Part shown: one piece after another, positions 8,431-49,271 of the stretch
Layout: each line of letters begins with the position of its first letter
Numbering within the stretch: position 1 is the stretch's first letter
Source: Candidatus Limnocylindria bacterium
GTDB lineage: Bacteria; Chloroflexota; Limnocylindria; P2-11E
Reading direction: 5' to 3'
Length of the DNA stretch: 64,000 bases
Assembly (NCBI GenBank): GCA_036001645.1
Contig: DASYUC010000045.1
Span: forward strand, 14-64,013
Translations under genes and position numbers: made by a program
Notes under the pieces: generated by a model
Databases searched by the model: none
What the model saw: the letters and a program-made list of their open reading frames with translations, nothing else
What the model was told of the DNA's origin: nothing

Positions 8431-8443
8431 ACCCCGCGAGATC

Positions 8444-11124: not shown

Positions 11125-11176
11125 CCGTCGGCAGTCCCACAAGTCCCACGGAAGGGGGAGGACGTACGCTTCCGCC

Positions 11177-12070: not shown

Positions 12071-12200
12071 CGTGAGTCGAGAGCCGCGGGGCGTGCCGCG
12101 AACGAGCACCGAGACCGCGGCATTAGTCCGACCGTGCGCGAGACGCATGGGAGCGGGCCCGTTCTGCGAGAGAGCGGCACTCGCCGCGGCGATCTGACTC

Positions 12201-18629: not shown

Positions 18630-18916
18630 CGGCGCGGACTCTGGCGTGCGCGATGCGCAACGCTCGGCGTGTGTCCCATGTGGCGGTCGCAGCGTGTGTG
18701 CGAGGACGGTACGCCGGGCGGCGGACGACGAGTCTTGCGTGGATGCTTGAGAGAGGAGGCACTGAGATGAACGCCGATCGCAAGATGCGCGCGAGCGACG
18801 ATGAGGCCCGCGCGCGCCGTTCCCGCCGGATCCATGCATTCCTTGGCGGTTGGGCGCAACGCCACTGGCCCGACCGCGTGACCCACTTCGGGAGGCGCTA
18901 GCCTCCGCCCGTACCG

Positions 18917-19564
18917 ATCCGCTGGGTCACCTTCGACTGCTACGGCACGCTCATCGACTGGGAGCGGGGGATCGCCGATGCGCTCCTGCCGCTCCTCCCC
19001 GAACGCACCGACCGCGGCGAGCTCGCGCGCCGCTACATCCGCGTGGAAGCGCAGGTCGAAGCCGAGGCCTACCGTCCGTATCGCGACGTGCTGGACGTGG
19101 CGGGTGTGCGGGTGCTCGCGTCACTCGGCATCGATGCGCCGTCGCCGCTGCCCGCGTCGCTCCCGAGCTGGCGGCCGTTCGCCGAGGTGCCCGCCGCGCT
19201 CGGGGAGCTGCGGCGGCGCGGCCGGAAGATCGCGATCCTGTCGAACGTCGACCGGGATCTCATCGCCTCCTCGATACCGCAGCTCGGGCTCGCGCCCGAT
19301 CTCGTCGTGACGGCGCAGGACTGCGGCAGCTACAAGCCCGCGTCCCGCCACTGGCGGATGTTCAGCGAGCGAAGCGCCGCCGGCCCCGACGACACCATTC
19401 ACGTCGGCGCGAGCCAGTACCACGACATGCGGCCCGCGGCGTCGCTCGGCTACCGGACGGTCTTCATCGACCGGCACAGCGAAGCGCTCGAGACGTCGCC
19501 AACGCGTGTCCTCTCCGATCTCTCGACGCTGCCTGATGTGATCGAGGAGCTCGCGCGCGCGTGA
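18917..19564 (+). CDS. HAD-superfamily hydrolase (type II haloacid-dehalogenase-like); start codon unresolved
   Basis: HAD motif I (VTFDCYGTLIDWE) lies between an in-frame TAG at 18899 and the first canonical start (GTG at 19043). The only start-like codon upstream of the motif is ATC at 18917. Later motifs SNVD and SYKP...HVGAS..HD are present. Confidence 0.65.
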   Translation: MRWVTFDCYGTLIDWERGIADALLPLLPERTDRGELARRYIRVEAQVEAEAYRPYRDVLDVAGVRVLASLGIDAPSPLPASLPSWRPFAEVPAALGELRRRGRKIAILSNVDRDLIASSIPQLGLAPDLVVTAQDCGSYKPASRHWRMFSERSAAGPDDTIHVGASQYHDMRPAASLGYRTVFIDRHSEALETSPTRVLSDLSTLPDVIEELARA

Positions 19565-20849: not shown

Positions 20850-21761
20850 ATGGAAACGCAACATCCGACTGCCGGTTCCTCGTACGGCGGCGCGCCCGCC
20901 ATCGCGAAGAAGGTCACCGTTCCCGATGTCGTCGCGATGAAGCGCGACGGCAAACGCATCACGATGATGACCGCCTACGACGCCGCGTTCGCGCGACTCG
21001 TCGAGCAGGCGGGCATCGACATCATCCTCGTCGGCGATTCGCTCGGCATGGTCGTGCTCGGCTATCCGAACACCGTGCCGGTCACGATGGACGACATGGT
21101 CCGGCACGCCGCCGCCGTCTCGCGCGGCGCCTCACGCCCGCTGCTCGTCGGTGACATGCCGTTCGGCTCGTACCAGACGGGGCCGACCGACGCGCTCCGG
21201 AACGCCGCGCGCTTCCTGAAGGAGTCGGGCATGGACGCGGTGAAGCTCGAGGGCGGACACGAGACCGTGCCACTCGTGAAGGCGCTCGTCGACAACGGTA
21301 TCGCGGTCATGGCGCACGTCGGTCTCACGCCCCAGCGCGTCGCGCAGTTCGGCGGCTTCAAGACGCAGGCGAAGAGCGCGCGTGCCGCGCGCCGGCTCAT
21401 CGACGACGCGGTCGCGCTCGAGGACGCGGGCGCCTTCTCCATCGTGCTCGAGTCCATCCCGGCGCCGGTCGCCGCGATGGTGACCGAGCGGCTTTCGATC
21501 CCGACCATCGGTATCGGCGCGGGTGTCGATTGCGATGGCCAGGTACTCGTGCTGCACGATGTGCTCGGGCTCTACGGCGACTTCAAGCCGAAGTTCGCCA
21601 AGCGCTACGGCGAGATCGGCACGGCTGTGGTCGACGCACTGCGCGCGTTCGACACCGACGTGCGAGAGGGGCGCTTCCCCGATGCGGAGCACAGCTTCAC
21701 CATGAAGGAGAGCGAGCTCACCGCCCTGCGGCAGAACGTCACGCGCCCGAAGGCGGTCTGA
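20850..21761 (+). CDS. panB: 3-methyl-2-oxobutanoate hydroxymethyltransferase
   Basis: The motifs are ITMMTAYDAAFARLVEQAGIDIILVGDSLGMVVLGY...VGDMPFGSY...VKLEGG...MAHVGLTPQ. Confidence 0.92.
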   Translation: METQHPTAGSSYGGAPAIAKKVTVPDVVAMKRDGKRITMMTAYDAAFARLVEQAGIDIILVGDSLGMVVLGYPNTVPVTMDDMVRHAAAVSRGASRPLLVGDMPFGSYQTGPTDALRNAARFLKESGMDAVKLEGGHETVPLVKALVDNGIAVMAHVGLTPQRVAQFGGFKTQAKSARAARRLIDDAVALEDAGAFSIVLESIPAPVAAMVTERLSIPTIGIGAGVDCDGQVLVLHDVLGLYGDFKPKFAKRYGEIGTAVVDALRAFDTDVREGRFPDAEHSFTMKESELTALRQNVTRPKAV

Positions 21762-21782
21762 TCCATCGGCGATCCCGACCGG

Positions 21783-22622
21783 CTGCGCGTCGCGATCATC
21801 GGGATGGGCGCGATCGGCCACGTCGTCGAGAAGGCGCTCGCGGGCCGCGCTGACATCGTTCCCGTCGATCGCACCAGCGCGCCGCTGCGCGCGGATGAGG
21901 AAGTGGTCGACGCCGCTGTCGTCTGCGTGAAGACGCATGGCACCGCGTGGGCGGTGGACGTCGCACGACGGATCCTCGCTCCGCGGGGCGTGGCGATCAC
22001 GATCCAGAACGGTCTCGGCAACTACGAGGCCCTCGCGGCGGCCGTGGGCGAGGAACGCGCCGCGGTCGGCGTGATCTACGTCGGTGCGCGGCTCGACGAG
22101 CGGGGCGAGCTGCACGCGACGGGGCCCGGACGCGTCGAGCTGGGGCGACCGCGCGGCAGCGCGCCGCGCCGCGCCTTCGACGCGCTCGTGACTGCTCTCA
22201 GCCGTGGCGGCATGACGGTCAGCGCGAAGGACGACGCGTGGCCCTCGGTCTGGCGGAAGATCGCCACGAACGCGGCCGTGAATCCGACGACCGCGCTTCT
22301 CGGCTACACGAACGCCGAGCTTCTCGCCGACATCGCCGGTTCGCGCGTCGCCGACGGCCTCGCGGCGGAGGTCGCACGCGTCGCGACCGCCGCGGGTGTC
22401 GCGATGGGCGAGGACGAGGCGCGGCGCTGGTGGCGCGAGATGGCGCAGCTCACCGGCGCCAATCGCTCCTCGATGCTGCAGGACGTGCTGGCGGGACGAC
22501 CCACGGAGGTGGACGCGATCTGCGGCGCGGTCCATCGCGAAGGCGAGCGTCGCGGCATCGGCGCGCCGCTCAATCAGGCGATGACGGTCCTCGTGTCTGC
22601 GCTCACCAGGGAACGCGCCTAG
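21783..22622 (+). CDS. panE: 2-dehydropantoate 2-reductase; probable non-canonical start
   Basis: The Rossmann strand and glycine loop (RVAIIGMGAIGHVV) begin upstream of the first ATG at 21804. The only candidates are CTG at 21783 or ATC at 21765. The family tail is NRSSMLQDVLAGRPTEVDAI. Confidence 0.8.
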   Translation: MRVAIIGMGAIGHVVEKALAGRADIVPVDRTSAPLRADEEVVDAAVVCVKTHGTAWAVDVARRILAPRGVAITIQNGLGNYEALAAAVGEERAAVGVIYVGARLDERGELHATGPGRVELGRPRGSAPRRAFDALVTALSRGGMTVSAKDDAWPSVWRKIATNAAVNPTTALLGYTNAELLADIAGSRVADGLAAEVARVATAAGVAMGEDEARRWWREMAQLTGANRSSMLQDVLAGRPTEVDAICGAVHREGERRGIGAPLNQAMTVLVSALTRERA

Positions 22623-23890: not shown

Positions 23891-25069
23891 CTACGCTGGC
23901 GACAGGTACCGCGTGCCGGCGTCTTTGGTTCGGGCCGCGGCGATCAGCGCGATCCCTGACAGCACGAGGAAGACGGCGGCCAGCCAGCCGTACGCCGCGC
24001 CGATGCCGATCGCGCCTGCGATGCCCCCGAAGATCGGCGCGGCAACGCCGCCGACGGGCTGATTGACGAGGTAGTACGTGCCGAGGACCGTCGACCGCCG
24101 CTCGGGCGGTGTGTTGTCGACGATGAGCACCTCGGTCGTCGTGGCGCGGATCGAGAACGAGATGCCGATCAGGAGGAGCGGCAGGAACACCAGCTCGCTT
24201 GGGACGACGGTGAGCGCCCACGCCGCCGGTCCCATGAGCGCGAGGCCCAGTAGCAGGACGATGCGCCGGCCGAAGCGGTCGGAGAGGGTCCCCGCCATCG
24301 GAGCGCCGACGAGCCCGGCGAGCTGCGGGACGCCGAACAGCGCCGCGGCCACGCCGGGCGAGATCCCGCGCGCGTCGACGAGATACGTGCTGAGAAATGC
24401 CAGCGCCGCCGAGAGCACGACCTGGAACACGATCGACAGCGAGACGAGCGCGCCGACGCGCCGCGCGACGGCGGCGATGTCGCTGCCCGTCGCGAGCCAG
24501 CTGTGGCGGCCGGTCGACCTGATGCCCATCGGCGCGACGCGCCAGATGAGGACCGCGCACAGGATGGGGGCGAGCGCGAATGCGAGGTAAGGCGTCCGCC
24601 ATGTGCCGGCGGTCGCGAGGATGCCGGCGAGGAGCGGCGCCGCGAAGAACGACAGGTGCCCCGCCGTCGTGTGCGTGCCCATCGCCATGCCGCGGCGCGA
24701 GGAGAACAGCTCCGCGATGAGGGCGGACGCCGGCGCGTGATAGGTGCCGCTCGCGATCCCCATGACCGCGAGGAAGGCGAGCAGCTGCCAGTACTCGGTC
24801 GACAGTCCGATCGCGACGCTTGAGAGTCCGATGAGGACGAGACCCCACACGATGACGCGCCGCGCGCCGATGCGGTCCGCGAGCACGCCGAGCGGCGCGT
24901 TGGTCACACCGGATGCGATCGAGTAGGCGCTGACGAGGAATCCGGCGCCCGTGTACGACAGCCCGAAGGCGCTCTGGATGAACGGCAGTAGCGCGCTGAG
25001 CAGGCTGTTCGTGACGTGATGTGCGAAGTGGGCGACGCTGAAGGAGACGAGGAGCGCACGCCGCGTCAA
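23891..25069 (-). CDS. MFS transporter, last gene of the glycoside operon
   Basis: There are twelve hydrophobic segments with LGVLADRIGARRV. The TTG at 25069 overlaps the panC stop (TTGA). The 595-aa track ORF is an antisense-of-panC extension. Confidence 0.8.
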   Translation of the reverse strand: MTRRALLVSFSVAHFAHHVTNSLLSALLPFIQSAFGLSYTGAGFLVSAYSIASGVTNAPLGVLADRIGARRVIVWGLVLIGLSSVAIGLSTEYWQLLAFLAVMGIASGTYHAPASALIAELFSSRRGMAMGTHTTAGHLSFFAAPLLAGILATAGTWRTPYLAFALAPILCAVLIWRVAPMGIRSTGRHSWLATGSDIAAVARRVGALVSLSIVFQVVLSAALAFLSTYLVDARGISPGVAAALFGVPQLAGLVGAPMAGTLSDRFGRRIVLLLGLALMGPAAWALTVVPSELVFLPLLLIGISFSIRATTTEVLIVDNTPPERRSTVLGTYYLVNQPVGGVAAPIFGGIAGAIGIGAAYGWLAAVFLVLSGIALIAAARTKDAGTRYLSPA

Positions 25070-25923
25070 CGCAGGTCCGCCACGTCCATGCCGAGGAGCA
25101 CATTGTCGATGAGCCGCGCCCGGCCCACCCGCGCCGCGAGGGAGATGACCGCCGTGTCGGCGGGCGCGTCGAGCGCGTCGAGCTCGGCGAGCGTCAGCGG
25201 GTCGGCGACCGAGACGTACTCGAGCGAAACGCTGGGCACGTCGGTATAGCGCCGAACCGCGTTGCTCAGACGAACAGGGTGGCGCATTCCCTGCTCCCAC
25301 AGATCGCGCGCCCGGAAGAGACCCCGCGACAGCGCGACCGCGTCGCGGCGCTGCTCCGGCGTGAGGTACGCGTTGCGCGACGACATCGCGAGGCCGTCGG
25401 GTTCCCGCACGATCGGGCAGCCGACGATGTCCGCACCCAGGCGGAGATCGCGCGCGATCGTCTGGAGCACGCGCAGCTGCTGGAAATCCTTCTGTCCGAA
25501 GAACGCGATGTCGGGCCGCACGATCGCCAGCAGCTTCGCGACGACCGTCGCCACGCCGACGAAGTGGCCGGGCCGCGCGGCACCCTCGAGCGGCGCCGCG
25601 ATCGGCCCGGGCGTGACGCGCGTCGCGTCGCCTGGGGGGTAGATCTCCGCGACGGGTGGCACGAAGGCCGCGGCGCACGCGTGCTGCTCGAGCAGCGCGA
25701 TGTCCTCGGCCTCGCGCCGCGGATACGCCGCGAAGTCCTCGCTCGGCCCGAACTGCGTCGGGTTGACGAAGATCGAGGCGATCGCTGCGTCCGTCTCACG
25801 CACCGCGCGCTCCACGAGCGACAGGTGTCCCGCGTGCAGCGCGCCCATCGTGGGCACCAGTCCGACGCGCCGCACGCCCGCGCGCCAGGCGCGCACGTCG
25901 GAGACGGTGCGGAGGACCTTCAA
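25066..25923 (-). CDS. panC: Pantoate--beta-alanine ligase
   Basis: The motifs are GLVPTMGALHAGHLSLV...IFVNPTQFGP.EDF..YPR...GHF.GV.TVV.KL...FGQKDFQQ...REPDGLAMSSRN. The TTG start at 25923 overlaps the upstream stop (TTGA). Confidence 0.9.
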   Translation of the reverse strand: MKVLRTVSDVRAWRAGVRRVGLVPTMGALHAGHLSLVERAVRETDAAIASIFVNPTQFGPSEDFAAYPRREAEDIALLEQHACAAAFVPPVAEIYPPGDATRVTPGPIAAPLEGAARPGHFVGVATVVAKLLAIVRPDIAFFGQKDFQQLRVLQTIARDLRLGADIVGCPIVREPDGLAMSSRNAYLTPEQRRDAVALSRGLFRARDLWEQGMRHPVRLSNAVRRYTDVPSVSLEYVSVADPLTLAELDALDAPADTAVISLAARVGRARLIDNVLLGMDVADLR

Positions 25924-27713
25924 CGACGACGCGCGGTGATGTATTCGGGGATCGTGGCCATCGGCGGAAGCTCGCCGATCTCGATGTCGTGCATCTCGAG
26001 GTGGAGCTTTCCCCCTTCGGTCTGCGTGATGAGCTTGAGCGTCGCGTTCGCCTCTTCCCAGATCCGTCCCCCATGGGCCTCGCCGACGCGCTTGAGCGCG
26101 ACCTGGAGGATCTGGAAGCTCATCTTGGACAGACTGAGCAGGTCCTGGTTCCGGTGGATGCGGTGCTTCATGTCGACCTGAGCGAGTGCGCCCAACCCGG
26201 CGCGCAGCAGGGTGTCGATGAGGAGCCCGGTCTCGACACCATACCCCGTGAAGAATGGGAGCTGTTCGAGCAGCGTGCGGCGCCCGCCTTGTTCGCCGGA
26301 CAGCGGCTGGACCATCCCCGACAGCTCGGGGAAGAACAGGTTCAGGATCGGGCGCGCGGACAGCTCGGTGACGCGGCCACCGCCTGAGGCGAGCACCTCG
26401 GCGCCGATGCGCAGCGGCCGCTGGTAGAAGGCCTTTACGAACTGCACGTCGGGCCGCAGGAGCAACGGGCCGAGGATCCCGTACACGAACTTCGGATGCG
26501 TATCGGTGACGTCCGTGTCGATCCACACGACGATGTCGCCGGTGAGAACGTGCAGGCTCTTCCAGAGCGCCTCGCCTTTGCCGCGGCGCGCACCGTAGTC
26601 GGGGAGGACGTCGCCGAGGACGTGCACCGGGACGCCTTCTTCCCGCGCGATCTCGCGCGTCTGGTCGTCGGAATCGGAGTCGATGACCGCGATCTCGTCC
26701 ACGAGGGGGATCCGTTCCATGAGGCGCGAGCGGATCGCGCGGATGACCCTGCGGACCGTCGCCTCCTCATTGAGCGTCGGCAGCCCGACGGAGATGCGAA
26801 GGTTCTGCCGCTCCTTGGCCTCGAGGAGCCGGCGCAGGTCCGCGAACTCGCTGGAGCTGAACGTGTTCTGCACGAACCACTTGTCGACGATCTCGCCGAC
26901 GACCTTGCTGCGCTCGGCGCGGTCCGCCGGCAGCGTGGCCAGGGGAAGAGCGAGGTTCTGGCTGAAGGGCGTCGCGGTGCGAACCACGACCGCGGCGCGC
27001 GCGCTCGCCACGATCGCCTGACCGACCGGGCCCAGCGGATCCTCCTGATCCTTGCGACCGGTGGCGCCGAAGGCGATCGCGTCGTGCTCTGCGAGCTCCT
27101 CGTTGATCACCTCGGCGGGATCGCCCGTGCGCGTGACGAGTCGATCGACGCGGTCATCGAGCGCGCGCTCGCCGAGGAGCTGATACAGCGTCGGGGTGCG
27201 GCGTCCGGGCGTCCGCACGTGGAGCAATGTGACGCTCCCGCCCTTCGCGCGGGCCCAGCCGATCGCGACCTTGGCCGCGAGATCCGCGTAGCGGCCGCCG
27301 CGGACGGGCACGAGGATCCGCCGCGCGCGCGACAGCTGACCCTTGACGACTGCGATGTCGCACGGCGGATTGCGGAGGACGTCTTCGATCGTCGTTCCGA
27401 GGAGGTCCCAGCCGGGACGCCGCCACGTGAGCAGGAGCAGATCGGGCCGCTCGCTCGCCACCGTCTCCTGGACCGCCTGCCAGCCCTGCCGGGCGACGGT
27501 CACGAGCGTTCGCGCGCGTGCCTCGGCCGGCACGAGCTGGTCGAGCGTGCGCCGCAGGCGACGCGCCTCGGGCTGCACCGAGGCGAGCGTGTCGCCCTCG
27601 GGGACCTCGATCGGTGAGATCAGGATGAGCTCCTCACCCGCGGCGAGGGCAACGGCGAGGTCGACGACGGCGCGGTCTCGCTCGGGATCGACGATCGCGA
27701 CGAGGCACTTCAT
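25920..27713 (-). CDS. gpgS: Tandem universal-stress-protein (USP) domains fused to glucosyl-3-phosphoglycerate synthase (GT81)
   Basis: The C-terminal ~310 aa are colinear with my memory of M. tuberculosis GpgS. Shared motifs are LPTLNEEATV, VIDSDSDDQT, RGKGEALWKSL, WIDTDV, GGGRVTEL, QPLSGE, GYGVETGLLID and HRNQ. The N-terminal ~290 aa are two USP-like modules (ILVPVRGG..., GATGRKDQEDPLGPVGQAIV). The ATG at 27713 overlaps the GT4 stop (ATGA). Confidence 0.85.
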   Translation of the reverse strand: MKCLVAIVDPERDRAVVDLAVALAAGEELILISPIEVPEGDTLASVQPEARRLRRTLDQLVPAEARARTLVTVARQGWQAVQETVASERPDLLLLTWRRPGWDLLGTTIEDVLRNPPCDIAVVKGQLSRARRILVPVRGGRYADLAAKVAIGWARAKGGSVTLLHVRTPGRRTPTLYQLLGERALDDRVDRLVTRTGDPAEVINEELAEHDAIAFGATGRKDQEDPLGPVGQAIVASARAAVVVRTATPFSQNLALPLATLPADRAERSKVVGEIVDKWFVQNTFSSSEFADLRRLLEAKERQNLRISVGLPTLNEEATVRRVIRAIRSRLMERIPLVDEIAVIDSDSDDQTREIAREEGVPVHVLGDVLPDYGARRGKGEALWKSLHVLTGDIVVWIDTDVTDTHPKFVYGILGPLLLRPDVQFVKAFYQRPLRIGAEVLASGGGRVTELSARPILNLFFPELSGMVQPLSGEQGGRRTLLEQLPFFTGYGVETGLLIDTLLRAGLGALAQVDMKHRIHRNQDLLSLSKMSFQILQVALKRVGEAHGGRIWEEANATLKLITQTEGGKLHLEMHDIEIGELPPMATIPEYITARRR

Positions 27714-28930
27714 GCGGCACGACCGAGGATGACGGGTAGGACGCGCTCGCGCAGGACGCGCGGCCAGGCGTGCTCGCGTGCGCGGGCGCGCATGCGCATG
27801 ACGGGCGTGTCGAGCCCCCGCTCGATCGCGTCCGCGATGACGTCGCCGCTCGCGTCGGGCGGGACGTAGATCGGGTCGTCGCCGCCGGTCTCCCGGAGCG
27901 ACGGGATGTCGCTGCACACGATCGGCATGCGGTGCAAGCCAGCCTCCAGCATAGGAATTCCGAAGCCTTCGCTCTCGCTGGGGAAGACCAGCACATCGGC
28001 CAGCGCATACAGGTCTACGACCGTTCCGTAGTTGATGCGCAGGCCGAGCGCCGCGAGGAGCTGCACACCATCAACCTTCTTCGCGCGCGCCGCGAGCTCC
28101 GCGAGATACGCCTTGTTCGCGGCGTTGTGCGGTCCCATGGTCCCGGTCACGACGAGCACCGCGGCATGACCGCGGCGGCGGAGCGCCGCGGTCGCGTCGA
28201 TCGCGGCCTCGACGCGTTTGCGTCGCGTGAGCCGGACCGGAAGGAGGAGCAGCGGGTCGGCGTCGAACAGGCCAAGACGCTGCGCGAGACGAAGACCGGT
28301 CGGCGCGAGGCCGAGCACCTGGCCGACGTCGATGCCGTTCGTCACGACCTCGATGTCGTCGCGCGGGAGGCCGGTGAGCTGCGAGAGCTGCTGTGCCCTC
28401 TCCTGCGACACCGTGACGTACCGCACGCCGGGCACGGCGTGCGTCACGAGATCCCACGGCGGCCCGTCGCGTCGCAGCGCCGCGTAGCGCTCGTCGAAGT
28501 ACGAGATGTCGTGGGTCCAGGCGATGAAACGGCCCGGCCGCTCGCGCGCGAGAGACCCGAGCACCTCCGTCAGCGCGAGATTCAGCGGCATCGTCATGAC
28601 GTTGTGCACGACGACGCGGTCCGCGCGCTCAACGTGCGGACGGATCTTCGTCATGAGACGCGCGACGAGCGCATCGTGCTCCGGCGCGCGGTCGCCGCGC
28701 GAGAGCGCAGCGAGGTCGCGCTCGACCGCGGGATGGCGCGAGTCGGCCTCGGCGACGCGGATCACGCGAACCCCGCGTGGCGTCGCTCCGCCGCGACCCG
28801 CGAGCACCGCGACCTCCTTACCTTCGGCCTGGAGGGCCGCCGCGTGCGCGGCCATGACCTGCTCCACTCCGCCGAGGATCTGCGGCGTGGTGTAGTGGAC
28901 GAACAGGATGCGGCGCACGCCGCGGGTCAC
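27710..28930 (-). CDS. GT4-family (GT-B) glycosyltransferase
   Basis: The N-terminus is RILFVHYTTPQILGGVEQV and the C-terminal E-x7-E region is VFPSESEGFGIPMLEAG. The GTG at 28930 overlaps the upstream stop (GTGA). Confidence 0.85.
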   Translation of the reverse strand: MTRGVRRILFVHYTTPQILGGVEQVMAAHAAALQAEGKEVAVLAGRGGATPRGVRVIRVAEADSRHPAVERDLAALSRGDRAPEHDALVARLMTKIRPHVERADRVVVHNVMTMPLNLALTEVLGSLARERPGRFIAWTHDISYFDERYAALRRDGPPWDLVTHAVPGVRYVTVSQERAQQLSQLTGLPRDDIEVVTNGIDVGQVLGLAPTGLRLAQRLGLFDADPLLLLPVRLTRRKRVEAAIDATAALRRRGHAAVLVVTGTMGPHNAANKAYLAELAARAKKVDGVQLLAALGLRINYGTVVDLYALADVLVFPSESEGFGIPMLEAGLHRMPIVCSDIPSLRETGGDDPIYVPPDASGDVIADAIERGLDTPVMRMRARAREHAWPRVLRERVLPVILGRAA

Positions 28931-31050
28931 GCCGGAGTGGCCGTCCGCATCTGCGCGAGGCGCCCCTGCCCGCCGGCGACGTGGTCCCCCTTCACGCCGC
29001 GGCGCACGCGGAATGTCATGCGTGCGCCGAAGACCTCCATGTCGCGAACGTCGATCCGCTCGAGCCATGGAGGCAGCGCCGGATCGATGAGCAGCCGCTG
29101 CGTCGCCAGATCCGGCACGAGCCCGAGGAGCGTGCGCAGGCAGAGGAACACCATCCCCGCCGACCACGCCTGCGGGATGCACGAAACCAGGTAATCCGCC
29201 GGCCGCGACGAGAAGCGCAGGTCGCGCTGGAAGCCGCAGAAGAGCTCCGGCAGGCGCGAGTCCGGAAAGCGCCGCCCAGCCTCGATGAGCGCGCTGGTGA
29301 TCTCGGCCGCCTCCTCGCGGAAGCCGTACCGCGCGAAACCCTGGGCGATGAGCGAGTTGTCGTGCGGCCACACCGAGCCGTTGTGATAGCTCATCGGGTT
29401 GTACGTCGGGTACGTGCTCGAGAGCGTGCGGATGCCCCAACCGGTGTACATGTCCGGTGTCATGAGCCGGTGCACGACCGTCGCCGCGTGTTCGGGGCTC
29501 GCGATGCCGCCCCACAGCGCGTGGCCGGCGTTGCTCGTCACCGCGCGCACCTGCTTCTTGTCGCCGTCGAGCGCCTGCGCGTAGCACCCCTGGTCGGCCA
29601 TCCAGAAGTCGCGCTCGAACCGCTCGCGCAGCTCGCGCGCCTCGCCACGGAGACGGTCCGCGCGCGCGGCGTCGCCGTCGAGCGCGTAGAGATCGGCGAG
29701 CCCCGTCTTCGCGGCGTAGACGTACGCCTGGACCTCGACGAGGGCCGCGGGCAGCTTCGACCACGTGCCGTCAGGGTCGGAGAGCGACTGTGGTGAATCC
29801 TTCCAACCCTGACTCTGGAGACGGGCGCTGTCGCGGTCCGACTCCTGCGGGCCGTACTCGACGTAGCCGTCGCGGTCGGCATCGCCGTACGTGTCGCACC
29901 AGGTGAGCGCGCGCTCCGCCGCGGGGAGCAGCTCGCGCCACAGCTCGCGGTCGGCGGTCCATTTCACCGTCTCGGCGACGATGAGCGCGAAGAGCGGCGT
30001 CGCGTCGACGGATCCGTAGTAGGGGCGGTGCGGGATCTCTCCGAGCCGCGCGAGCTCGCCGCGGCGCAGCTCGTGGAAGATCTTTCCCGGCTGCTCCTCC
30101 GAGAACGTGTCCACCTTCTGGCCCTGGTACTTGGCGAGGAGTCGCAGCGTCCCGCGCGCGATGTCGGGATTCCAGCCGAGCGTCTGGTACGCGCAGATGA
30201 GTCCGTCGCGTCCGAACGGGACCGCGTACCAGGGGATGCCCGCCGTGGGGTAGGGCCCGCTGTCGTGGAATTCCATGAGCGCGCGAAGGTCGAGCGCGCT
30301 GCGCGTGATGAGGCCCTCGTCGAGCGTCTCGGAGCTCGTCGTGTAGCGGGCGCACGCGCGGAGGAAACGGCGATAGCGCGCGTTGAGCGCGTCGATCGCA
30401 TCGTCGAAGCGGTCCGGCGACGGTGCCGCGCCCGCGCCGTCCTCGCGCGGGATCACCGCGAGCTCGATGGTCAGCACGCCCTGCGGCGGCAGCTCGCGCT
30501 CGATGTGGAAGACGTTGCCCTCGATGCGGTCGGGCGCGGGGCGCATCGTGATGTCGGTCGTGCGCCGCACCGCGTCGCGGCCGACGCGCTCGAAGACGAT
30601 GCCGCCCTCGCGCCCGCCACGCTTGATCTCGTACGGTGTCGCCGCGACCGCGTGGTGGCCACGGACCGCGAACATGTCGCGGAACGAGGCCTCGAACTCG
30701 AGCTCGAGAGCGACGCGGACCGGTCCTGGATTCGCGTTGAGCACACCGATGCGCTCGCGCATGCCGTCGGCGAGAAATCGGGTGCGCCGGATCGACAGCG
30801 CCTCGGCCGCGTGACGAGCGGTGCCGAGCATGGCCCCCTCCGAGCGCATGAGCTGGAAGGTCGCCACGTAGTTCTGCTCGGTGTTCGCCGACAGCAGGAT
30901 CGGCGGCGCCCCGTTCACACGCAGCGCGTAGCCCGAGAGGAACTGCGTGTCGTGGTAGTAAAGCCCGAACGGGCTCGCGCTCCCGAGCGCGAGCGAGCCG
31001 TCGTTCTCCGTGATCAGGACGAGTGCGTCTTCTTTGAGCGAAACGCTCAC
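28927..31050 (-). CDS. Amylo-alpha-1,6-glucosidase / glycogen-debranching-type (GDE_N_bis + GDE_C, (alpha/alpha)6) glycoside hydrolase
   Basis: The motifs are GLYYHDTQFLS, GIPWYAVPFGRDGLI, HELRRGELA, YYGSVDATPLF, GYVEY, QGWKDS, YHNGSVWPHDN and CIPQAWSAG. The GTG at 31050 overlaps the upstream stop (GTGA). The 1000-aa track ORF is over-extended. Confidence 0.85.
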   Translation of the reverse strand: MSVSLKEDALVLITENDGSLALGSASPFGLYYHDTQFLSGYALRVNGAPPILLSANTEQNYVATFQLMRSEGAMLGTARHAAEALSIRRTRFLADGMRERIGVLNANPGPVRVALELEFEASFRDMFAVRGHHAVAATPYEIKRGGREGGIVFERVGRDAVRRTTDITMRPAPDRIEGNVFHIERELPPQGVLTIELAVIPREDGAGAAPSPDRFDDAIDALNARYRRFLRACARYTTSSETLDEGLITRSALDLRALMEFHDSGPYPTAGIPWYAVPFGRDGLICAYQTLGWNPDIARGTLRLLAKYQGQKVDTFSEEQPGKIFHELRRGELARLGEIPHRPYYGSVDATPLFALIVAETVKWTADRELWRELLPAAERALTWCDTYGDADRDGYVEYGPQESDRDSARLQSQGWKDSPQSLSDPDGTWSKLPAALVEVQAYVYAAKTGLADLYALDGDAARADRLRGEARELRERFERDFWMADQGCYAQALDGDKKQVRAVTSNAGHALWGGIASPEHAATVVHRLMTPDMYTGWGIRTLSSTYPTYNPMSYHNGSVWPHDNSLIAQGFARYGFREEAAEITSALIEAGRRFPDSRLPELFCGFQRDLRFSSRPADYLVSCIPQAWSAGMVFLCLRTLLGLVPDLATQRLLIDPALPPWLERIDVRDMEVFGARMTFRVRRGVKGDHVAGGQGRLAQMRTATPA

Positions 31051-32264
31051 GCGGTCGAAGCGCTCCTCGCTCTGTCCTGGCCGCGTCGCTCGAGGAAGTG
31101 ACGCTTCTCCTCCTCCATGGCACGCGCGCCGTTCTCGATCACGGTCTCGGACTGCGTCGTGGTCATGTCGCGCACCTCTTCGATGAAGGACGCGGTACGC
31201 AGGAGATAGAGGGGCAGCAGCGAGCGCGCGATCTGCTCGCTCGCGGCCGGGCGCCGCAGCGCGGCGGCGAGGTGCTCGAAGACGATGCGCGCCCACGTCT
31301 TCGCGTCGAGCGACTCGGGCACCGGCGCGGAGAGGATGTCCCGCCAGGTGGCGTCCTGAGCGCCCTTCGCCGCCGCGTACTTCTCGCGGAGCCGGGCGGG
31401 GTCCGCGGGGACCGCCTCGGGCTCGACGGGCATCACGTCGCCGATGACCGGCACCTCCTTCGAGCCCTGCACCTTCGACCACGCGGGCTCGTTCGCGGCG
31501 GCGAGACGGAAGAGCGTGCCGACGACCTGCGTGAACATCGGGCCGAGGTCGGCCGCGGGATCCTTGGGGTCGTGCACCTTCGCGCCGAGGAACGCCTGCG
31601 CGACCTTGGCGCCGCGCACGATCGCGGTCGTCGTCATGAAGATGTCGATGCCGAAGCGCGCGACGTCGGTATCCCACACCGGCTGCTCGAGGTACACACG
31701 CGCGAGGTCGGCGCGGAAGCCGAACTCGCCGCCGATCGGCTGACGCACACGCAGCCCGTACAGCGCGCGCGTGAGCGGATACGCGACGGAGTTCGTGATC
31801 GTGCCGTCGTGCTTGTGCCGCGCGTAGAGCGGGGTGACGTAGTCGGCGTCGCCGCTCGTGACCGGGGTCGCCAGGCGCCCGATCCACTCCGGCGTGATGC
31901 TGCGGAGGTCGCTGTCGACGACGGCGCACGCGCGCGCGCCGAGCATGCCCACCGCGGTGAAGATCGCGCGGAACGCCGAGCCCTTGCCGGGCGGTCCGAT
32001 GTACCGACCGACGGCCACCGGCACGCCGGACGCGCCCTCGACGACACGGTCTGGCGTGCCGTCCTCGGACCCGCCGTCCGCGTTGACGATCGCGACGCGC
32101 GCGCCCGGGAAATGCTCGCGCAGCCCCTTCGCCGCGGTCGTCGCGACGTGACCGATCGTCGTGGCGTTGCGGAAGCTGGGGATCCCCACGACGACGTCGG
32201 CCGAGCCGATCTTGGTGAGCCCACCCGCCAGGCGCTCGTCGAGCGTCATGTGATCGTCAGGCAT
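31047..32264 (-). CDS. GT-A glycosyltransferase resembling mannosylglycerate/glucosylglycerate synthase (GT78-like); first gene of the operon
   Basis: The motif order is VVVGIPSF, NADGGSEDGT, GKGSAFR, VVDSDLRSITPEWI, QPIGGEFGF, RFGIDIFMTT, AKVHDPKD. This parallels, from memory, Rhodothermus MGS (GKGDG, DADI..F.PDWI, QPLGGE, DWGID, K.H). The ATG at 32264 has GGAGG 5 nt upstream. Confidence 0.65.
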   Translation of the reverse strand: MPDDHMTLDERLAGGLTKIGSADVVVGIPSFRNATTIGHVATTAAKGLREHFPGARVAIVNADGGSEDGTPDRVVEGASGVPVAVGRYIGPPGKGSAFRAIFTAVGMLGARACAVVDSDLRSITPEWIGRLATPVTSGDADYVTPLYARHKHDGTITNSVAYPLTRALYGLRVRQPIGGEFGFRADLARVYLEQPVWDTDVARFGIDIFMTTTAIVRGAKVAQAFLGAKVHDPKDPAADLGPMFTQVVGTLFRLAAANEPAWSKVQGSKEVPVIGDVMPVEPEAVPADPARLREKYAAAKGAQDATWRDILSAPVPESLDAKTWARIVFEHLAAALRRPAASEQIARSLLPLYLLRTASFIEEVRDMTTTQSETVIENGARAMEEEKRHFLERRGQDRARSASTA

Positions 32265-32320
32265 GCGTCCCTCCAATGTGAGTTCACGCACCCTTCCCGT
32301 CGTGACGCCATCATACCGGC

Positions 32321-32953
32321 GTGCTTGAAGCGATCGACGCGATCGTTCTGCCCTTTCTCGAATCGCTCTATGAGCGGTTCGGTTATGTCGGTGTCGTCAT
32401 CGCGATGACGATCGAGAGCTGTGCGATCCCTCTGCCGTCGGAGCTCATCCTTCCGTTCGCCGGCTGGAGCGTGTCGCGCGGACTCGTGGAACCGCTCACG
32501 TCGTCGCCCTGGAGCTACTGGGGCGCGGTCGTCGCGGGCGTTCTCGGAAATACGCTCGGCTCGCTCGCCAGCTATGCGATCGGAGCATATGGCGGTCGGC
32601 CGCTGGTCGAGCGATATGGGAAATATGTCCTGATCAGCGCCCACGACCTCGCCCTCGCGGAGCGCTGGTTCGCGCGGTTTGGCGAGGCGACGGTCTTCTT
32701 CTCCCGCATGCTGCCCATCGTCCGCACCTTCATCTCCGTACCGGCGGGGATAGCGCGGATGCCGCTGTGGCGCTTCACGCTCTTCTCGATCCTCGGGGCC
32801 ATCCCCTGGGTGATGCTCCTCGTCTGGGGTGGGATGCAGCTCGGCGATCACTGGCTCGAGCTCAAGCACTCGCTGAGGGGCCTCGACTACCTGGTCGCGG
32901 CGGCGATCGTCGCGGCGGTCGGGATCTTCGTCTGGCGGCACGTGCGCCGCTGA
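32321..32953 (+). CDS. DedA/SNARE-associated family membrane protein
   Basis: The motifs are GYVGVVIAMTIESCAIPLPSELILPFAG...GRPLVERYGKYV...FSRMLPIVRTFISVPAGIARMP. Confidence 0.85.
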   Translation: MLEAIDAIVLPFLESLYERFGYVGVVIAMTIESCAIPLPSELILPFAGWSVSRGLVEPLTSSPWSYWGAVVAGVLGNTLGSLASYAIGAYGGRPLVERYGKYVLISAHDLALAERWFARFGEATVFFSRMLPIVRTFISVPAGIARMPLWRFTLFSILGAIPWVMLLVWGGMQLGDHWLELKHSLRGLDYLVAAAIVAAVGIFVWRHVRR

Positions 32954-35943
32954 TGGAGACCCTCTTCACATTCGACCGGCAGCTGTTCGTCGCGATCGTG
33001 ACCGCGGTCTCCGGGAACGCACTGCTCGCCGCTCTTGCCGTCGCGGTGGCGTACCTCAACTGGAACGCGATCGTCTGGTGGATCGCGGGCGCGCTCGCGG
33101 CGCGCGCGCGGGGGTGGGGACGACGCGGGATGTGGGGCGCCCTCACCGTCTATCTCGGACTGTGCGACGCCTGGCTCGTCGCCGAGCTGCTGAAGCTGGT
33201 GGTCCGGCGCCCGCGCCCGTTCACGGTCGTCCTCGACCTTCCAGCGACGCTCGTCACCGAGCCCACGACCTTCTCGTTCCCATCGGGTGACACGGCGTTC
33301 GCGTTCGGCGCGGCCGTCGCCCTCGGTCACGTCGCGCCCGCCTGGCGCTTGCCGGCGCTGCTCTTCGCGGTCGCGGTCGCGTTCGAGCGCGTCGCCGTCG
33401 GAGTGCACTACCCGCTCGACGTGACCGCCGGCGCGCTGATCGGCACGGTGTCCGGGCTCAGCGCGCCGTTCGCCGTCGCGCTGCTGCGGCGCCGCGCGCG
33501 GTGGCGCGCGTTCGTCGTGCCGCACACGCACTGGGACCGCGAGTGGTACGAGCGCTTCGAGGGCTATCGCGCGCGACTCGTGCCGATGGTGTCGAAGCTC
33601 CTCGATCTTCTCGAGCGCGACAGCGCGTTCCGGTCGTTCACGTTCGACGGTCACAGCATCTGGGCCGAGGACTATCTCGAGATGCGGCCCGCCGATCGGC
33701 CGCGCTTGGAGGCGCTCGTACGCGCGGAGCGTCTCTTCATCGGGCCGTGGTACGTGCTCGCCGACAACCTGCTCGTCTCGGGCGAGTCGCTGCTTCGGAA
33801 TTTCCAGGAGGGCCTGCGCGTCTCCGCGTCGTTCGGACGCGCGACGCGGGTCGGCTATGTGGCGGATCCCTTCGGCCATCCGGCGCAGACGCCGCAGCTC
33901 CTGCGCGGCTTCGGCTACAGCAGCTACATCTTCTCGCGCGGCGTCGGGGACGAGGGCGAGCGCGTCGGCGCGGAGTTCCGCTGGCAGGCGCCCTCGGGCG
34001 ACCGCGTTCTCGCGACGCATCTCGTCGACCACTACTCCGGCGGTCTTCAACTGGTCGGCGATCTCGCCGAGACGCCGCAGCAGCTTCGCGCGCGGCTCCG
34101 TCGACGGCTGCGCCGGCTGTTCGACGTGACGACCGCTTACGCGAATGGCTCGACGCTCCTCTTCATGGTCGGCGACGATCACGTCGACGCGTACCCGCGG
34201 CTGCCGGAGGCAGTCAGCGTCCTGCACGAGCTGACCCCGAGCATCGAGGTCCGCATCACGAGCCTCGAGGAGTACGAGGCCGCCGTTGCCCAGCCGAGCG
34301 GGACCGTCGTCGGCGAGATGGTGCGCGGCCGGTACCGGCCCATCCTCCGCGGCGTCAACTCCACGCGGGTATGGATCAAACAGGAGAACGTCGCGTGCGA
34401 GCGGCTGCTGCTCGAGCGCTGCGAGCCGTTCGACGCCCTCACCGGCGGCGTCGCCAGCGACGAGGTGCGCTCGCTTTGGCGCACGCTCCTGCAGAACCAT
34501 CCGCACGACTCGATCTGTGGCTGCTCGATCGACGCCGTGCACGACGTCGACATGGCGCCGCGTTTCGCGCGCGTCCGCACCGATGGCGAGGCGCTGGCCA
34601 CGCGTCTCGCGCGCGAGCTCGGCGGTCGTGGGAACGCAGCGGTCGTGTGGAGCGCGGTGCCCTGGGAGCGTGACGCGGTCGTCGCGCTCGACGGCCGACC
34701 CACCCGCGTGCGCTGCGCCGCGCTGGGCACGGCGCCGGCGCGCCGGGCCGACGGCGCGGGCGTCTCGTCCCCGGAGGACGGCGTGATCGAGAACGAAGCG
34801 TTCCGCGTCGAGGTCGCGCTGGACGGCTCCTTCGCGGTCATCGACCGCGTGAGCGGCGAGCGCTCCGGTCCGCATGGAGCTCTGCTCGACGAGGGCGACC
34901 GGGGGGACGAATACACCTATTCATATGCGGGCCCGACGCTCGGGTCGCGCGATCTCGCCGGCACGCGGCGCACCGAGGTCAGCGGCGACCGCGCCACCGT
35001 GACGATCGCCCTCGAGCTCCCGCTACCCGCGGGCCTGCGCGAGGACCGGCTGGCGCGCACGCCCGAGCTTGTGTCGTGCGCCGTGCGAAGTGAGATCTCG
35101 CTCGACGCCGGCGCACGCCGCGTCGACGTCCGGGTCGTCGTCGACAACCAGGCGCGCGATCACCGGCTGCGCGTTCTGTGCGAGACCGGAACGCGCTCCC
35201 TCACTCACGTCGCGGGCGCCGCGTTCGTCTGGCTCGAACGCGAAACGCGTGTCGCGCCGCGCCCAGGTTGGATCGAGCAGCCGACCCCCGAGCGCGCCGT
35301 GCACGATCTCGTCGCCGTCGAGGGCGCGACACGCGGCCTCGCGGTCGGCGTCGATGGCCTTCGCGAGTACGCGGTGCTCCACGACGGACGCACGATCGCG
35401 ATCACGCTCGTGCGTGCTGTCGGCTTCCTCTCGCGCGGCGACCTCCCGGAACGCAAGGGCCACGCGGGACCAGCGCTCGCGACACCGAGCGCGCAGTGCA
35501 TCGGCGAGCGCGAGTACCGCTACTGCGTCGTTCCGCTCGGCGGCGAGAGCACGCTGCCGCGTGCGGCGCGCGCGATCCGCGAGTGGCTGTCGCCGGCGTG
35601 GGCGGAGCGCGGGGATGAGGCTGTGCGCTCCTTCTATTCGGTGGAGGGCGATCCTGCGGTGCAGCCTTCGGCGCTGCGCGCGGGTCCCGACGGCGCGATC
35701 GTCGCGCGTCTCTTCAATCCCTCCGGCGAGTCGGCGTCCGCGACGCTCCGCTTCGCGCGCCGTGCCCTCGAGGCGCGCGCCGTCGATCTGCGCGAGGGCG
35801 ATCTCGCGCTCGGTAATACCGGTCTCGACATCGTCCGGACAGCGGCACCGCCCGACATCGTCGATCGCACGGTCGCGATCCGCCTCGCGCCCTACGAGAT
35901 CGGAACGTACCTTGTGCGTCTCGCACCGCACGAGCGCGACTAG
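32953..35943 (+). CDS. Fusion protein: N-terminal membrane PAP2 phosphatase domain + GH38 alpha-mannosidase
   Basis: The PAP2 motifs are KLVVRRPRP, PSGD (His replaced by Asp) and RVAVGVHYPLD. The GH38 part starts FVVPHTHWDREWY, followed by DGHS, GPWY and DPFGH, and runs ~800 aa. The ATG at 32953 overlaps the DedA stop (TGATG). Confidence 0.85.
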   Translation: METLFTFDRQLFVAIVTAVSGNALLAALAVAVAYLNWNAIVWWIAGALAARARGWGRRGMWGALTVYLGLCDAWLVAELLKLVVRRPRPFTVVLDLPATLVTEPTTFSFPSGDTAFAFGAAVALGHVAPAWRLPALLFAVAVAFERVAVGVHYPLDVTAGALIGTVSGLSAPFAVALLRRRARWRAFVVPHTHWDREWYERFEGYRARLVPMVSKLLDLLERDSAFRSFTFDGHSIWAEDYLEMRPADRPRLEALVRAERLFIGPWYVLADNLLVSGESLLRNFQEGLRVSASFGRATRVGYVADPFGHPAQTPQLLRGFGYSSYIFSRGVGDEGERVGAEFRWQAPSGDRVLATHLVDHYSGGLQLVGDLAETPQQLRARLRRRLRRLFDVTTAYANGSTLLFMVGDDHVDAYPRLPEAVSVLHELTPSIEVRITSLEEYEAAVAQPSGTVVGEMVRGRYRPILRGVNSTRVWIKQENVACERLLLERCEPFDALTGGVASDEVRSLWRTLLQNHPHDSICGCSIDAVHDVDMAPRFARVRTDGEALATRLARELGGRGNAAVVWSAVPWERDAVVALDGRPTRVRCAALGTAPARRADGAGVSSPEDGVIENEAFRVEVALDGSFAVIDRVSGERSGPHGALLDEGDRGDEYTYSYAGPTLGSRDLAGTRRTEVSGDRATVTIALELPLPAGLREDRLARTPELVSCAVRSEISLDAGARRVDVRVVVDNQARDHRLRVLCETGTRSLTHVAGAAFVWLERETRVAPRPGWIEQPTPERAVHDLVAVEGATRGLAVGVDGLREYAVLHDGRTIAITLVRAVGFLSRGDLPERKGHAGPALATPSAQCIGEREYRYCVVPLGGESTLPRAARAIREWLSPAWAERGDEAVRSFYSVEGDPAVQPSALRAGPDGAIVARLFNPSGESASATLRFARRALEARAVDLREGDLALGNTGLDIVRTAAPPDIVDRTVAIRLAPYEIGTYLVRLAPHERD

Positions 35944-36131: not shown

Positions 36132-36605
36132 GTGGACTGGATTCGGAGCCTACGCGCGTCGATCCGTGCGTTCGTTGTTGCCATCGTCATCACGATCGCC
36201 TTGTCGGCGCCTGCCGACGCCGCGCCAAAGTGGTGTGAGGCCGACCCGATCATCCACATCCACGGCAGCTGGGCGCAGATCGTCACGAAGTTCGACATGT
36301 CGTATCTCGCGACGATCACGGGCCCGCTGGCCTACGACGTCTATGTCCCCGACTTCGCGTACGCCTACACCTCCGTCGAGCTGCCGCCGTCACCGGTGGC
36401 CCGGACCGTAAGCGTTCATTCGCTTCCGCCGGAGTACTGGCCTGATTGGTCGTCGCCCGACAAGGTCAAGCTCGAAGTGCGCCTCTTCGTGCCAGCAACG
36501 GCGAACTTCCGGACCGTGTCGGACGTCACCGGAAGCATCAGGAAGGGCTTCCAGGTCCGGAGCGCGTCGAACACGCTGACCGTGTTCGCGATCTCGCTGC
36601 ATTAG
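36132..36605 (+). CDS. Secreted hypothetical protein (157 aa), no recognised family
   Basis: GGAGG lies 7 nt upstream of the GTG at 36132. The signal peptide is AIVITIALSAPADA-APK. The body looks beta-rich. The stop is immediately followed by the HD-GYP gene start. Confidence 0.6.
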   Translation: MDWIRSLRASIRAFVVAIVITIALSAPADAAPKWCEADPIIHIHGSWAQIVTKFDMSYLATITGPLAYDVYVPDFAYAYTSVELPPSPVARTVSVHSLPPEYWPDWSSPDKVKLEVRLFVPATANFRTVSDVTGSIRKGFQVRSASNTLTVFAISLH

Positions 36606-37880: not shown

Positions 37881-37904
37881 CATGGCGATTTGGGGGTGAG
37901 CGGG

Positions 37905-40978: not shown

Positions 40979-41081
40979 CGACCTCGCGCAAACGCGGTAC
41001 CTCGTTTTGGTCGGCTGTGTCACGCGAACGTGTGACGCGCGAGGGACAGACACGAGGCGGCGGCCGCCGTAACGTCGGCGC

Positions 41082-46742: not shown

Positions 46743-46748
46743 CTCCGC

Positions 46749-47942: not shown

Positions 47943-49271
<1,329 letters not shown>

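Follow-up and report, generated by a model that had tools for sequence, protein, structure and literature searches.

A conserved four-gene operon of Limnocylindria predicted to make and recycle a glucosylglycerate-type solute

Introduction

Limnocylindria are abundant, uncultured Chloroflexota of soil and fresh water. Here we ask what would be made, and what broken down, by the products of six minus-strand open reading frames (ORFs; henceforth g1 to g6) that lie head to tail at positions 23891-32264 of a 64,000-nucleotide (nt) stretch of Candidatus Limnocylindria DNA (henceforth the window; GC content ~70%), which is nearly all of a 64,233-bp contig of a metagenome-assembled genome (MAG). Two of the six are putative synthases of glycerate glycosides: g1, which resembles the one-step synthase Ggs, and g4, in which a GpgS of glycosyltransferase (GT) family 81 is fused to universal stress protein (USP) domains. 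A glycoside hydrolase (GH) gene, g2, and a GT4 gene, g3, lie between them, and panC (g5) and a gene for an MFS transporter (g6) follow. A first-pass annotation had read this gene set as a module for the synthesis and turnover of a glucosylglycerate-derived solute or primer, and the gene context in 80 genomes and the natural Ggs-USP-GpgS fusions reported below strengthen that reading. From family membership and analogy with known systems, we consider it probable, though well short of certain, that g1 to g4 form a translationally coupled operon that makes and recycles a glucosylglycerate (GG)-type compatible solute and a GT4-extended derivative of it.

Results

Six overlapping genes with a conserved core of four

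The six ORFs overlap by 4 nt at each of their five junctions, the stop/start overlaps reading, from g1 to g6, GTGA (31047-31050), GTGA (28927-28930), ATGA (27710-27713), TTGA (25920-25923) and TTGA (25066-25069). At 70% GC it is unsurprising by itself that a TGA stop should form an NTGA overlap, as three of the four possible preceding bases yield a start codon. We consider the ORF starts to be real because alignments with family profiles begin at residues 1-5 in g2, g4 and g5, because the gene calls made independently by JGI in L089, a 90%-identical relative, recover all six genes and all five 4-nt overlaps, and because the overlapping starts are kept across nine Limnocylindria species whose g1 is 56-67% identical to that of the window (8 of 9 at the g1-g2 junction, 6 of 8 at g2-g3 and 6 of 7 at g3-g4); for g1, an NCBI protein of exactly 405 amino acids is 100% identical to the translation. 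The six overlapping ORFs and their junctions are thus confirmed, the overlaps lying exactly where the first-pass annotation had put them, and the GGAGG Shine-Dalgarno-like sequence that it had noted for g1 is present. A scan of 22.5-33.2 kb, of a kind that is weak evidence in this phylum, found no sigma-70-like promoters or intrinsic terminators inside the unit, and an Rfam scan of the window returned no match; we infer that the unit is co-transcribed.

When a profile of the g1 family was run against one genome for each GTDB species, 80 loci were returned, nine of them in Limnocylindria (L001-L009) and 71 elsewhere (L010-L080). The genes for the Ggs-like enzyme, the GH176 hydrolase, the GT4 enzyme and USP-GpgS occur in this order in all nine Limnocylindria loci. 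In contrast, panC and the MFS gene follow GpgS only in the window, L001, L005, L009 and L089, and are absent in L003, L006 and L008. Because they follow GpgS in only some species, we define the functional unit as four genes; the six-gene unit proposed earlier stands as a run of six overlapping ORFs but not as a conserved whole. As core parts of the pathway panC and the MFS gene were rejected, since three species end the operon at GpgS, in L006 with a convergent typA behind it. The identity of both is clear from profiles, g5 scoring 298.5 bits with TIGR00018 (cut-off 212.75) and g6 matching Pfam MFS_1 at 2e-68, with a distribution that follows that of panC. Pantothenate/CoA genes (coaX, coaBC, panB, panE and panC) are scattered round the operon (14842-16820, 20850-22622 and 25066-25923), and because they surround it panC appears to have been recruited from this neighbourhood and appended to an otherwise unrelated operon. 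The panE gene near the operon looks N-terminally short.

Two putative glycerate-glycoside synthases

Profile searches bear out the domain calls previously made for all six genes. The earlier reading hinged in part on the placement of g1 and of the C-terminal domain of g4 in GT78 or GT81, and here it holds. A single-sequence search of the PDB with g1 gave only a chance match (nitrogenase Fe protein, E 0.16), and a family profile was therefore needed. Built from 26 diverse homologues, this profile matched GT81 GpgS at 2e-16 and, nearly over its full length (positions 64-375), GT78 mannosylglycerate synthase (MGS) at 1.5e-9. The AlphaFold model of g1 (predicted local distance difference test, pLDDT, 93.7) has a two-domain fold consisting of a GT-A domain and a C-terminal helical domain, and its top six Foldseek matches are all to the MGS of R. 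marinus (2y4k, 2bo7 and others; ~400 columns, TM 0.63-0.72), with GpgS structures ranking after them. Some close homologues of g1 carry a precomputed match to PF21969 (MGS_GT), and several are labelled 'glucosylglycerate synthase' by JGI. From its sequence and model, g1 is predicted to be a one-step synthase that would use a nucleoside diphosphate (NDP)-hexose and D-glycerate to give a hexosyl-glycerate.

The C-terminal part of g4 scores 368.8 bits with the NCBIfam GpgS model NF010496 (cut-off 262), residues 276-589 aligning with positions 5-306 of the 307 in the profile. Its nearest PDB entries are the MpgS of Rubrobacter (3f1y, 5.6e-71) and mycobacterial GpgS (4y6n, 4ddz and 7p5l, ~1e-61). 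Membership of GT81 is certain from sequence, which does not settle whether the donor carries glucose or mannose. Pfam Usp matches two stretches of the N-terminal part (7.9e-18), and the same USP-GpgS fusion occurs in loci L037 and L064 and in the protein P0122. The repeated fusion of a GT81 GpgS to USP domains, and even to Ggs, suggests that solute synthesis is under post-translational stress control; a full-text literature search pairing GpgS with universal stress protein domains found no paper.

A GH176 hydrolase and a GT4 enzyme between the synthases

The first-pass annotation had called g2 a GDE-type hydrolase, and the domains are indeed present (Pfam GDE_N_bis 3e-42, MGH1-like_GH 3e-25 and GDE_C 2.5e-9), arranged as a GDE_N_bis domain and an (alpha/alpha)6 catalytic domain; what changes is the family, now GH176, and with an alpha-1,2-glucosidase as relative the bond that is likely to be cleaved. 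Residues 29-645 of g2 align with residues 26-580 of PDB 7VMA at 1.1e-96. This structure is TgAMY, the founding member of CAZy GH176, a family of ~4,900 members in which a single activity is firmly characterised and at least six large clusters lack a known function; a second member, A8F5 of Arthrobacter humicola, acts strictly as an inverting alpha-1,2-glucosidase, and the study that describes it doubts the alpha-1,6 'debranching' label in the family (bioRxiv 10.64898/2026.07.01.735942). We mapped the residues of g2 by motif and spacing via the 7VMA alignment, without the A8F5 sequence itself, and on this basis the catalytic acid (D418), the base (E602) and the 'fixer' (D282) are kept, as are all of the residues that contact kojibiose in A8F5 (R281, H326, E327, W416, Y555, H556, W561, Q627 and W629). 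In A8F5 a His/Glu pair at the +1 subsite binds glucose (bioRxiv 10.64898/2026.07.01.735942). Loop 3 of g2 is of the short TgAMY type and not the A8F5 cap, and the shorter TgAMY-like loop is described as giving a more open pocket (bioRxiv 10.64898/2026.07.01.735942). The g2 protein is cytoplasmic and is predicted to be an exo-alpha-glucosidase.

The third gene, g3, has both domains of a GT4 enzyme, Pfam Glyco_transf_4 matching its N-terminal domain with 39.5 bits (cut-off 28.5) and Glycos_transf_1 its C-terminal domain with 69.6 bits (cut-off 26.4). By analogy with the GT4 enzymes that extend glycerate glycosides in other bacteria, g3 is predicted to add a second hexose to glucosyl-3-phosphoglycerate (GPG) or to GG.

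Genes for GH176 proteins also occur in other settings. In three proteobacterial genera a GT4 gene (~365 amino acids) lies directly upstream of a GH176 gene whose product is 40% identical to g2; these GT4-GH176 pairs, in L081 (5672-9106), L083 (5778-9097) and L087 (4765-8010), are carried by plasmids from Sinorhizobium medicae, Sphingobium yanoikuyae and Variovorax boronicumulans. These proteobacterial GT4 proteins were ruled out as orthologues of g3, which they match only through the generic C-terminal GT4 motif (E ~6e-4), and the pairs may be independent make-and-break pairs for an alpha-glucoside. The GH176 gene of Thermus is the last in a LacI/ABC sugar-uptake operon, and some other GH176 genes stand in unrelated contexts. 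On a Thermomicrobium roseum megaplasmid (L084, 4636-9145) a glutamine-synthetase-family gene and a VTT/DedA gene precede the GH176 homologue, which makes two instances of a DedA gene close to GH176 within the Chloroflexota/Thermomicrobiota lineage.

The g1 family in other lineages

The g1 family comprises at least 539 clusters at 50% identity (E <= 1e-30). Among the 80 loci, a Methanococcoides-type (NF040724-like) GpgS gene lies within ~8 kb of the g1 homologue in 46 loci and a gene for an MPGP-family HAD-IIB phosphatase within the same distance in 38; a DUF4147/MOFRL glycerate-kinase-like gene is a recurrent neighbour in the 71 loci outside Limnocylindria, and clusters of the GpgP-Ggs-GpgS type occur in Nitrospirota, Acidobacteriota, Desulfobacterota and other phyla. 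Directly downstream of Ggs, 54 of the 80 loci encode a small, mechanosensitive-channel-like membrane protein (~230 amino acids with 'conserved TM helix' repeats; for example L039, 4294-5004), whose sequence and position suggest a solute-release or sensing partner of Ggs; our literature search found no description of such a partner for GG clusters.

Gene fusions join the same parts. The protein P0122 (1061 amino acids) has the order Ggs-USP-USP-GT81 GpgS and is 41% identical to g4 over the whole length of g4, while P0170 and P0157 combine Ggs with a second GT-A domain; that of P0170 shares 44% identity with the GT81 part of g4. P0139 is a fusion of Ggs with TrkA_N, which hints at a link to osmoregulation, and P0121 (1179 amino acids) is a triple Ggs repeat.

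Outside Limnocylindria, too, USP-GpgS is encoded near Ggs. In L037, from an Anaerolineae MAG, the order at 1502-12928 is GT4, GT4, USP-GpgS, histidine phosphatase, MggS-family GT4 (207 bits, against an MggS cut-off of 640) and Ggs, and the GT4 enzyme encoded directly upstream of USP-GpgS is 40% identical to g3. Genes for a DtxR-type regulator, an S-adenosylmethionine (SAM) methyltransferase and a GDSL/AlgX-like protein come after Ggs, a gene set reminiscent of methylated or acylated GG-primed glycans. In L064, from a deltaproteobacterial MAG, the order is Ggs, USP-GpgS and MPGP phosphatase. Thus a phosphatase gene stands directly behind USP-GpgS in both of these loci, whereas Limnocylindria have either panC or nothing in this place. 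A further locus, L018 (5901-10519), has genes with overlapping ends for a GT4 enzyme, a metallo-beta-lactamase (MBL)-fold hydrolase, Ggs and a glycerate-kinase-like protein, the MBL-fold protein sitting in the slot held by the phosphatase in other clusters.

Divergent neighbours and candidate phosphatases

The coordinates of the operon and of its divergent neighbours are collected in Table 1.

Table 1. Features of the operon and of the divergently oriented genes beside it, in coordinates of the window.
Feature	Position	Strand	Basis
Shine-Dalgarno-like GGAGG	32270..32274	-	5 nt 5' of the g1 ATG at 32264; read from sequence
g1, Ggs/MGS-like GT-A glycosyltransferase, 405 amino acids	31047..32264	-	Profile and fold
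g2, GH176 glycoside hydrolase, 707 amino acids	28927..31050	-	Pfam, PDB 7VMA, residues
g3, GT4 retaining glycosyltransferase, 406 amino acids	27710..28930	-	Pfam
g4, whole gene, USP-USP-GT81 GpgS	25920..27713	-	Pfam, NCBIfam
g4, N-terminal part, tandem USP domains	26904..27713	-	Pfam Usp
g4, C-terminal part, GT81 GpgS/MpgS-type domain	25920..26903	-	NF010496, PDB
g5, panC, pantoate-beta-alanine ligase	25066..25923	-	TIGR00018
g6, MFS transporter, 392 amino acids	23891..25069	-	Pfam MFS_1
DedA/VTT protein, UptA-like	32321..32953	+	Pfam VTT_dom; NCBIfam UptA 173 bits, under cut-off 250
PAP2-GH38 alpha-mannosidase-like fusion	32953..35943	+	Pfam PAP2 and Glyco_hydro_38N, mid and C domains

The genes for the DedA protein and the PAP2-GH38 fusion overlap by 1 nt and stand divergently beside the operon in all nine Limnocylindria loci and in L089. 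In the fusion protein, which matches 5kbp, 3lvt and 2wyh in the PDB, the only curated model that the GH38 part matches is that of the mannosylglycerate hydrolase MngB (382 bits, under the cut-off of 1138), and the curated models nearest to the PAP2 part are undecaprenyl-diphosphatases, both under cut-off. The PAP2 motifs C1 (KX6RP) and C3 (SRX5HX3D) are present, but C2 reads PSGD and not PSGH in all ten aligned sequences. Hydrophobic segments and the positive-inside rule would place the PAP2 active-site loops outside the cell and the GH38 domain inside. The fusion would join a lipid-carrier-type phosphatase to a cytoplasmic MngB-like glycosidase; one speculative role for the GH38 domain is to remove a mannosyl cap, if the product of the operon resembles mannosylglucosylglycerate (MGG).

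The first-pass annotation had named two neighbours as candidates for the phosphatase that would act on GPG, and neither fared well. The PAP2 domain is unlikely in this role, given its likeness to undecaprenyl-diphosphatases, its UptA-like DedA partner, its PSGD motif and its predicted outward-facing active site. The HAD gene at 18.9 kb (~18880-19564, plus strand) is a weak candidate, its product being type-II-dehalogenase-like and its catalytic FDCYGTL motif lying upstream of the first in-frame ATG, GTG or TTG; the gene may use a non-canonical start, may have been misassembled or may be decaying.

In other Limnocylindria species the shared gene order runs past GH38 to a MalK/UgpC-like ATPase, and because it extends this far a functional link of DedA and PAP2-GH38 to the operon is not provable from conservation alone. 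The window has, between PAP2-GH38 and the MalK-like ATPase (36132-41609), genes for a subtilase and for two membrane proteins with HD (HD-GYP-like) domains, which are absent at that position in L089 and L002-L009 and so appear to have been inserted here. Further away, ~10 kb from the operon, the plus strand carries gap-pgk-eno and a gene for a PPDK/PEP-utilising enzyme (45720-52399), and L089 likewise has gap and pgk in the vicinity. The product of PGK, 3-phosphoglycerate, is the acceptor of GpgS, although this proximity is probably plain synteny.

Discussion

Drawing for every step on family membership and context, we propose that the GT81 GpgS of g4 would transfer hexose from an NDP-hexose to 3-phosphoglycerate to give GPG, its activity likely tied to stress signals by the two N-terminal USP domains, while the Ggs-like g1 would make the unphosphorylated glycoside directly from an NDP-hexose and D-glycerate. 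The GT4 enzyme g3 would then extend GPG or GG by a second hexose, in the manner of MggA and MggS, to give a di-hexosyl-glycerate. The cytoplasmic GH176 hydrolase g2, as an inverting exo-alpha-glucosidase with an alpha-1,2-type pocket, would cleave GG, itself a 2-O-alpha-glucoside, or an alpha-glucosyl cap for removal or turnover. A phosphatase encoded elsewhere would complete the phosphorylated branch, and panC and the MFS gene would be later additions outside the core function.

Several observations count against this proposal. As a single sequence, g1 stays under the cut-offs of both relevant models (22.1 bits with Pfam MGS_GT, PF21969, cut-off 27; 52 bits with NCBIfam GpgS, cut-off 262), and it is at most a putative orthologue of the Ggs of Persephonella marina. 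The NCBIfam equivalogs scored far under cut-off with g3 in every case (MggS, NF041101, 39 against 640 bits), and g3 is not an MggS orthologue. Because the +1 His/Glu pair binds glucose in A8F5 and glycerate is negatively charged, the pocket of g2 would fit Glc-alpha-1,2-Glc better than a bond to glycerate, which mildly suggests that GG is perhaps not its substrate. Searches by tblastn with the MPGP proteins of L059 and L064 and the His_Phos_1 protein of L037 found no homologue in the operon, in the 64-kb window or in L001-L009, in agreement with the earlier statement that the operon encodes no GpgP/MpgP phosphatase. Co-expression of the synthases with a hydrolase would imply a futile cycle if the enzymes were not controlled post-translationally. 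Finally, because synteny is broad, out to the MalK-like ATPase, conservation of neighbours is weak evidence of function.

A bolder version of the proposal, which we put forward tentatively as a possible but minority reading, is that GT4 and GH176 make and break a new glycerate glycoside, such as alpha-1,2-glucosyl-glucosylglycerate ('kojibiosyl-glycerate'), and that much of the uncharacterised part of GH176 recycles cytoplasmic alpha-glucoside solutes made by GT4 enzymes. The GT4-GH176 pairs on the plasmids of Sinorhizobium, Sphingobium and Variovorax would then be further examples. Because of the fusions and the USP domains, Ggs and GpgS would here form a regulated unit rather than redundant alternatives.

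Among the rival explanations, the one that survives best, although we think it unlikely, is that the solute is mannose-based, with g4 acting as MpgS, g1 as an MGS-type enzyme and the neighbouring GH38 domain as a mannosylglycerate-type hydrolase. The fold of g1 is closest to MGS, the conserved divergent GH38 matches no model but that of MngB, and g4 is closer in the PDB to the MpgS of Rubrobacter xylanophilus (5.6e-71) than to GpgS (~1e-61), the title of the paper on that MpgS, as it stands in the reference list of PMC3736172, stating dual substrate specificity. However, g4 passes a model named GpgS, JGI names the homologues of g1 for glucosylglycerate, and the GH38 score of 382 bits is far under the MngB cut-off of 1138, with MngB simply the only GH38 model that matched. 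Moreover, the whole -1 subsite of a glucose-specific alpha-glucosidase is preserved in g2, the O2-binding residue among it.

We also find it improbable that GG serves as the primer of an oligo- or polysaccharide resembling mycobacterial methylglucose lipopolysaccharide (MGLP), in which case the GT4 enzyme would elongate the chain or add the second glucose (as DggS would) and GH176 would trim or edit it. The operon has a single GT4 gene and encodes no methyltransferase, acyltransferase or branching enzyme, and links to osmotic stress run through the family, in the form of mechanosensitive-channel-like genes, the TrkA_N fusion and USP domains. What speaks for a primer is found partly in L037, which has three GT4 genes, a histidine-phosphatase-type GpgP and, nearby, a SAM methyltransferase and a GDSL/AlgX-like protein, and partly in g2 itself, whose short TgAMY-like loop 3 would leave a more open pocket. 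The mycobacterial enzyme Rv3032 belongs to GT4. In that pathway a GT81 GpgS initiates MGLP and Rv3032 elongates the chain, DggS, the next enzyme after GpgS, being only putative in 2011 (PMC3240985).

In another reading, the Ggs-like g1 and GpgS would work in series, g1 glycosylating GPG or GG for instance, and all the genes would belong to one linear pathway whose product is a tri-component glycoside. Ggs homologues almost always occur alongside a complete GpgS (and GpgP) route in the same cluster, and single Ggs-GpgS polypeptides are more typical of consecutive steps than of alternatives. The Km values of P. marina Ggs are reportedly in the millimolar range, and we know of no enzyme assigned to the addition of the second glucose in the glucosyl-glucosylglycerate of P. 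marina. Yet the fold of g1 is that of MGS, a user of glycerate, and we give the serial arrangement little credence. It is very improbable that the locus is mere inherited synteny, with GH176, GH38, the MalK-like ATPase and the MFS transporter serving the uptake and catabolism of external glycosides and the transferases the synthesis of the cell envelope, since, for all that gene order is conserved beyond the operon in every Limnocylindria locus, that DedA and PAP2 look like lipid-carrier recycling genes and that GH176 ends a sugar-uptake operon in Thermus, the 4-nt overlaps of g1 to g4 persist where protein identity is down to 56-67%, g4 is a genuine GpgS, Ggs-GpgS fusions exist, and GT4 and USP-GpgS are adjacent in another class (Anaerolineae, L037).

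No part of the operon comes from a new family, and Ggs and GpgS were already known to occur as a pair. What is new is the Limnocylindria-specific architecture, the position of GH176 and GT4, translationally coupled, between two synthases, the fusion of USP domains to GpgS, on which we found no literature, and a cluster without a phosphatase. Full-text literature searches found no paper that links Limnocylindria or GH176 to glucosylglycerate, and the few papers that name both Chloroflexi and glucosylglycerate concern, judging by their titles, unrelated topics. We regard the finding as a well-supported, testable lead rather than a surprise. The operon lets one predict, in concrete terms, that Limnocylindria have a glycerate-glycoside solute system; it also offers a genomic rationale for a natural GH176 substrate and hence a testable role for a barely studied family, and as its four enzymes are small and soluble the prediction can be tested directly by heterologous expression.

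Among known systems, the closest in layout is that of P. marina, reported by Fernandes et al. and Costa et al. in 2007, whose reported ggs/gpgS/gpgP arrangement is resembled by g1-family clusters in other phyla: there, too, a Ggs-type synthase that acts in one step is encoded beside the two-step route through GpgS. The Limnocylindria locus differs in that its GpgS is of the GT81 'actinobacterial' type with two USP domains and not of the Methanococcoides type that prevails in other Ggs clusters, in that it lacks an MPGP phosphatase, and in that GH176 and GT4 lie between the two synthases. The P. marina Ggs converts ADP-glucose and D-glycerate to glucosylglycerate, as quoted in PMC3736172.

In the MGG pathways, one of which runs through GpgS, MggA and MggB and the other through GgS and MggS, gpgS and mggA are adjacent in Petrotoga mobilis and the mggS operon of Rhodopirellula baltica holds a sucrose-phosphorylase-like gene (PMC3736172). 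The present locus resembles these pathways in that GpgS adjoins a GT4 enzyme predicted to extend the glycoside and in that phosphorylating and non-phosphorylating branches would run in parallel, and the degradative gene in the R. baltica operon is a precedent for the position of g2. In contrast to them, g3 is not an MggS orthologue, there is no MggB phosphatase, and the degradative enzyme is a GH176 hydrolase instead of a GH13 phosphorylase. Compared with TgAMY and A8F5, g2 is set apart by its place in a GG-synthase operon, the text of the preprint on those enzymes never mentioning 'glucosylglycerate' (bioRxiv 10.64898/2026.07.01.735942).

With mycobacteria the locus shares the GT81 family, to which both g4 and the mycobacterial GpgS (Rv1208) belong. 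Mycobacteria are said to use a GH63 enzyme, GgH, as a dedicated GG hydrolase for recovery from stress, whereas the hydrolase here is of GH176. The mycobacterial GpgP, Rv2419c, is of the histidine-phosphatase type (PMC3240985), and no such phosphatase is encoded at the Limnocylindria locus, although L037, with its histidine-phosphatase gene following USP-GpgS, is like the mycobacterial type in this respect. The mycobacterial GpgS structures matched by g4 are of 326-344 amino acids without a USP fusion, in marked contrast to g4, which carries USP domains.

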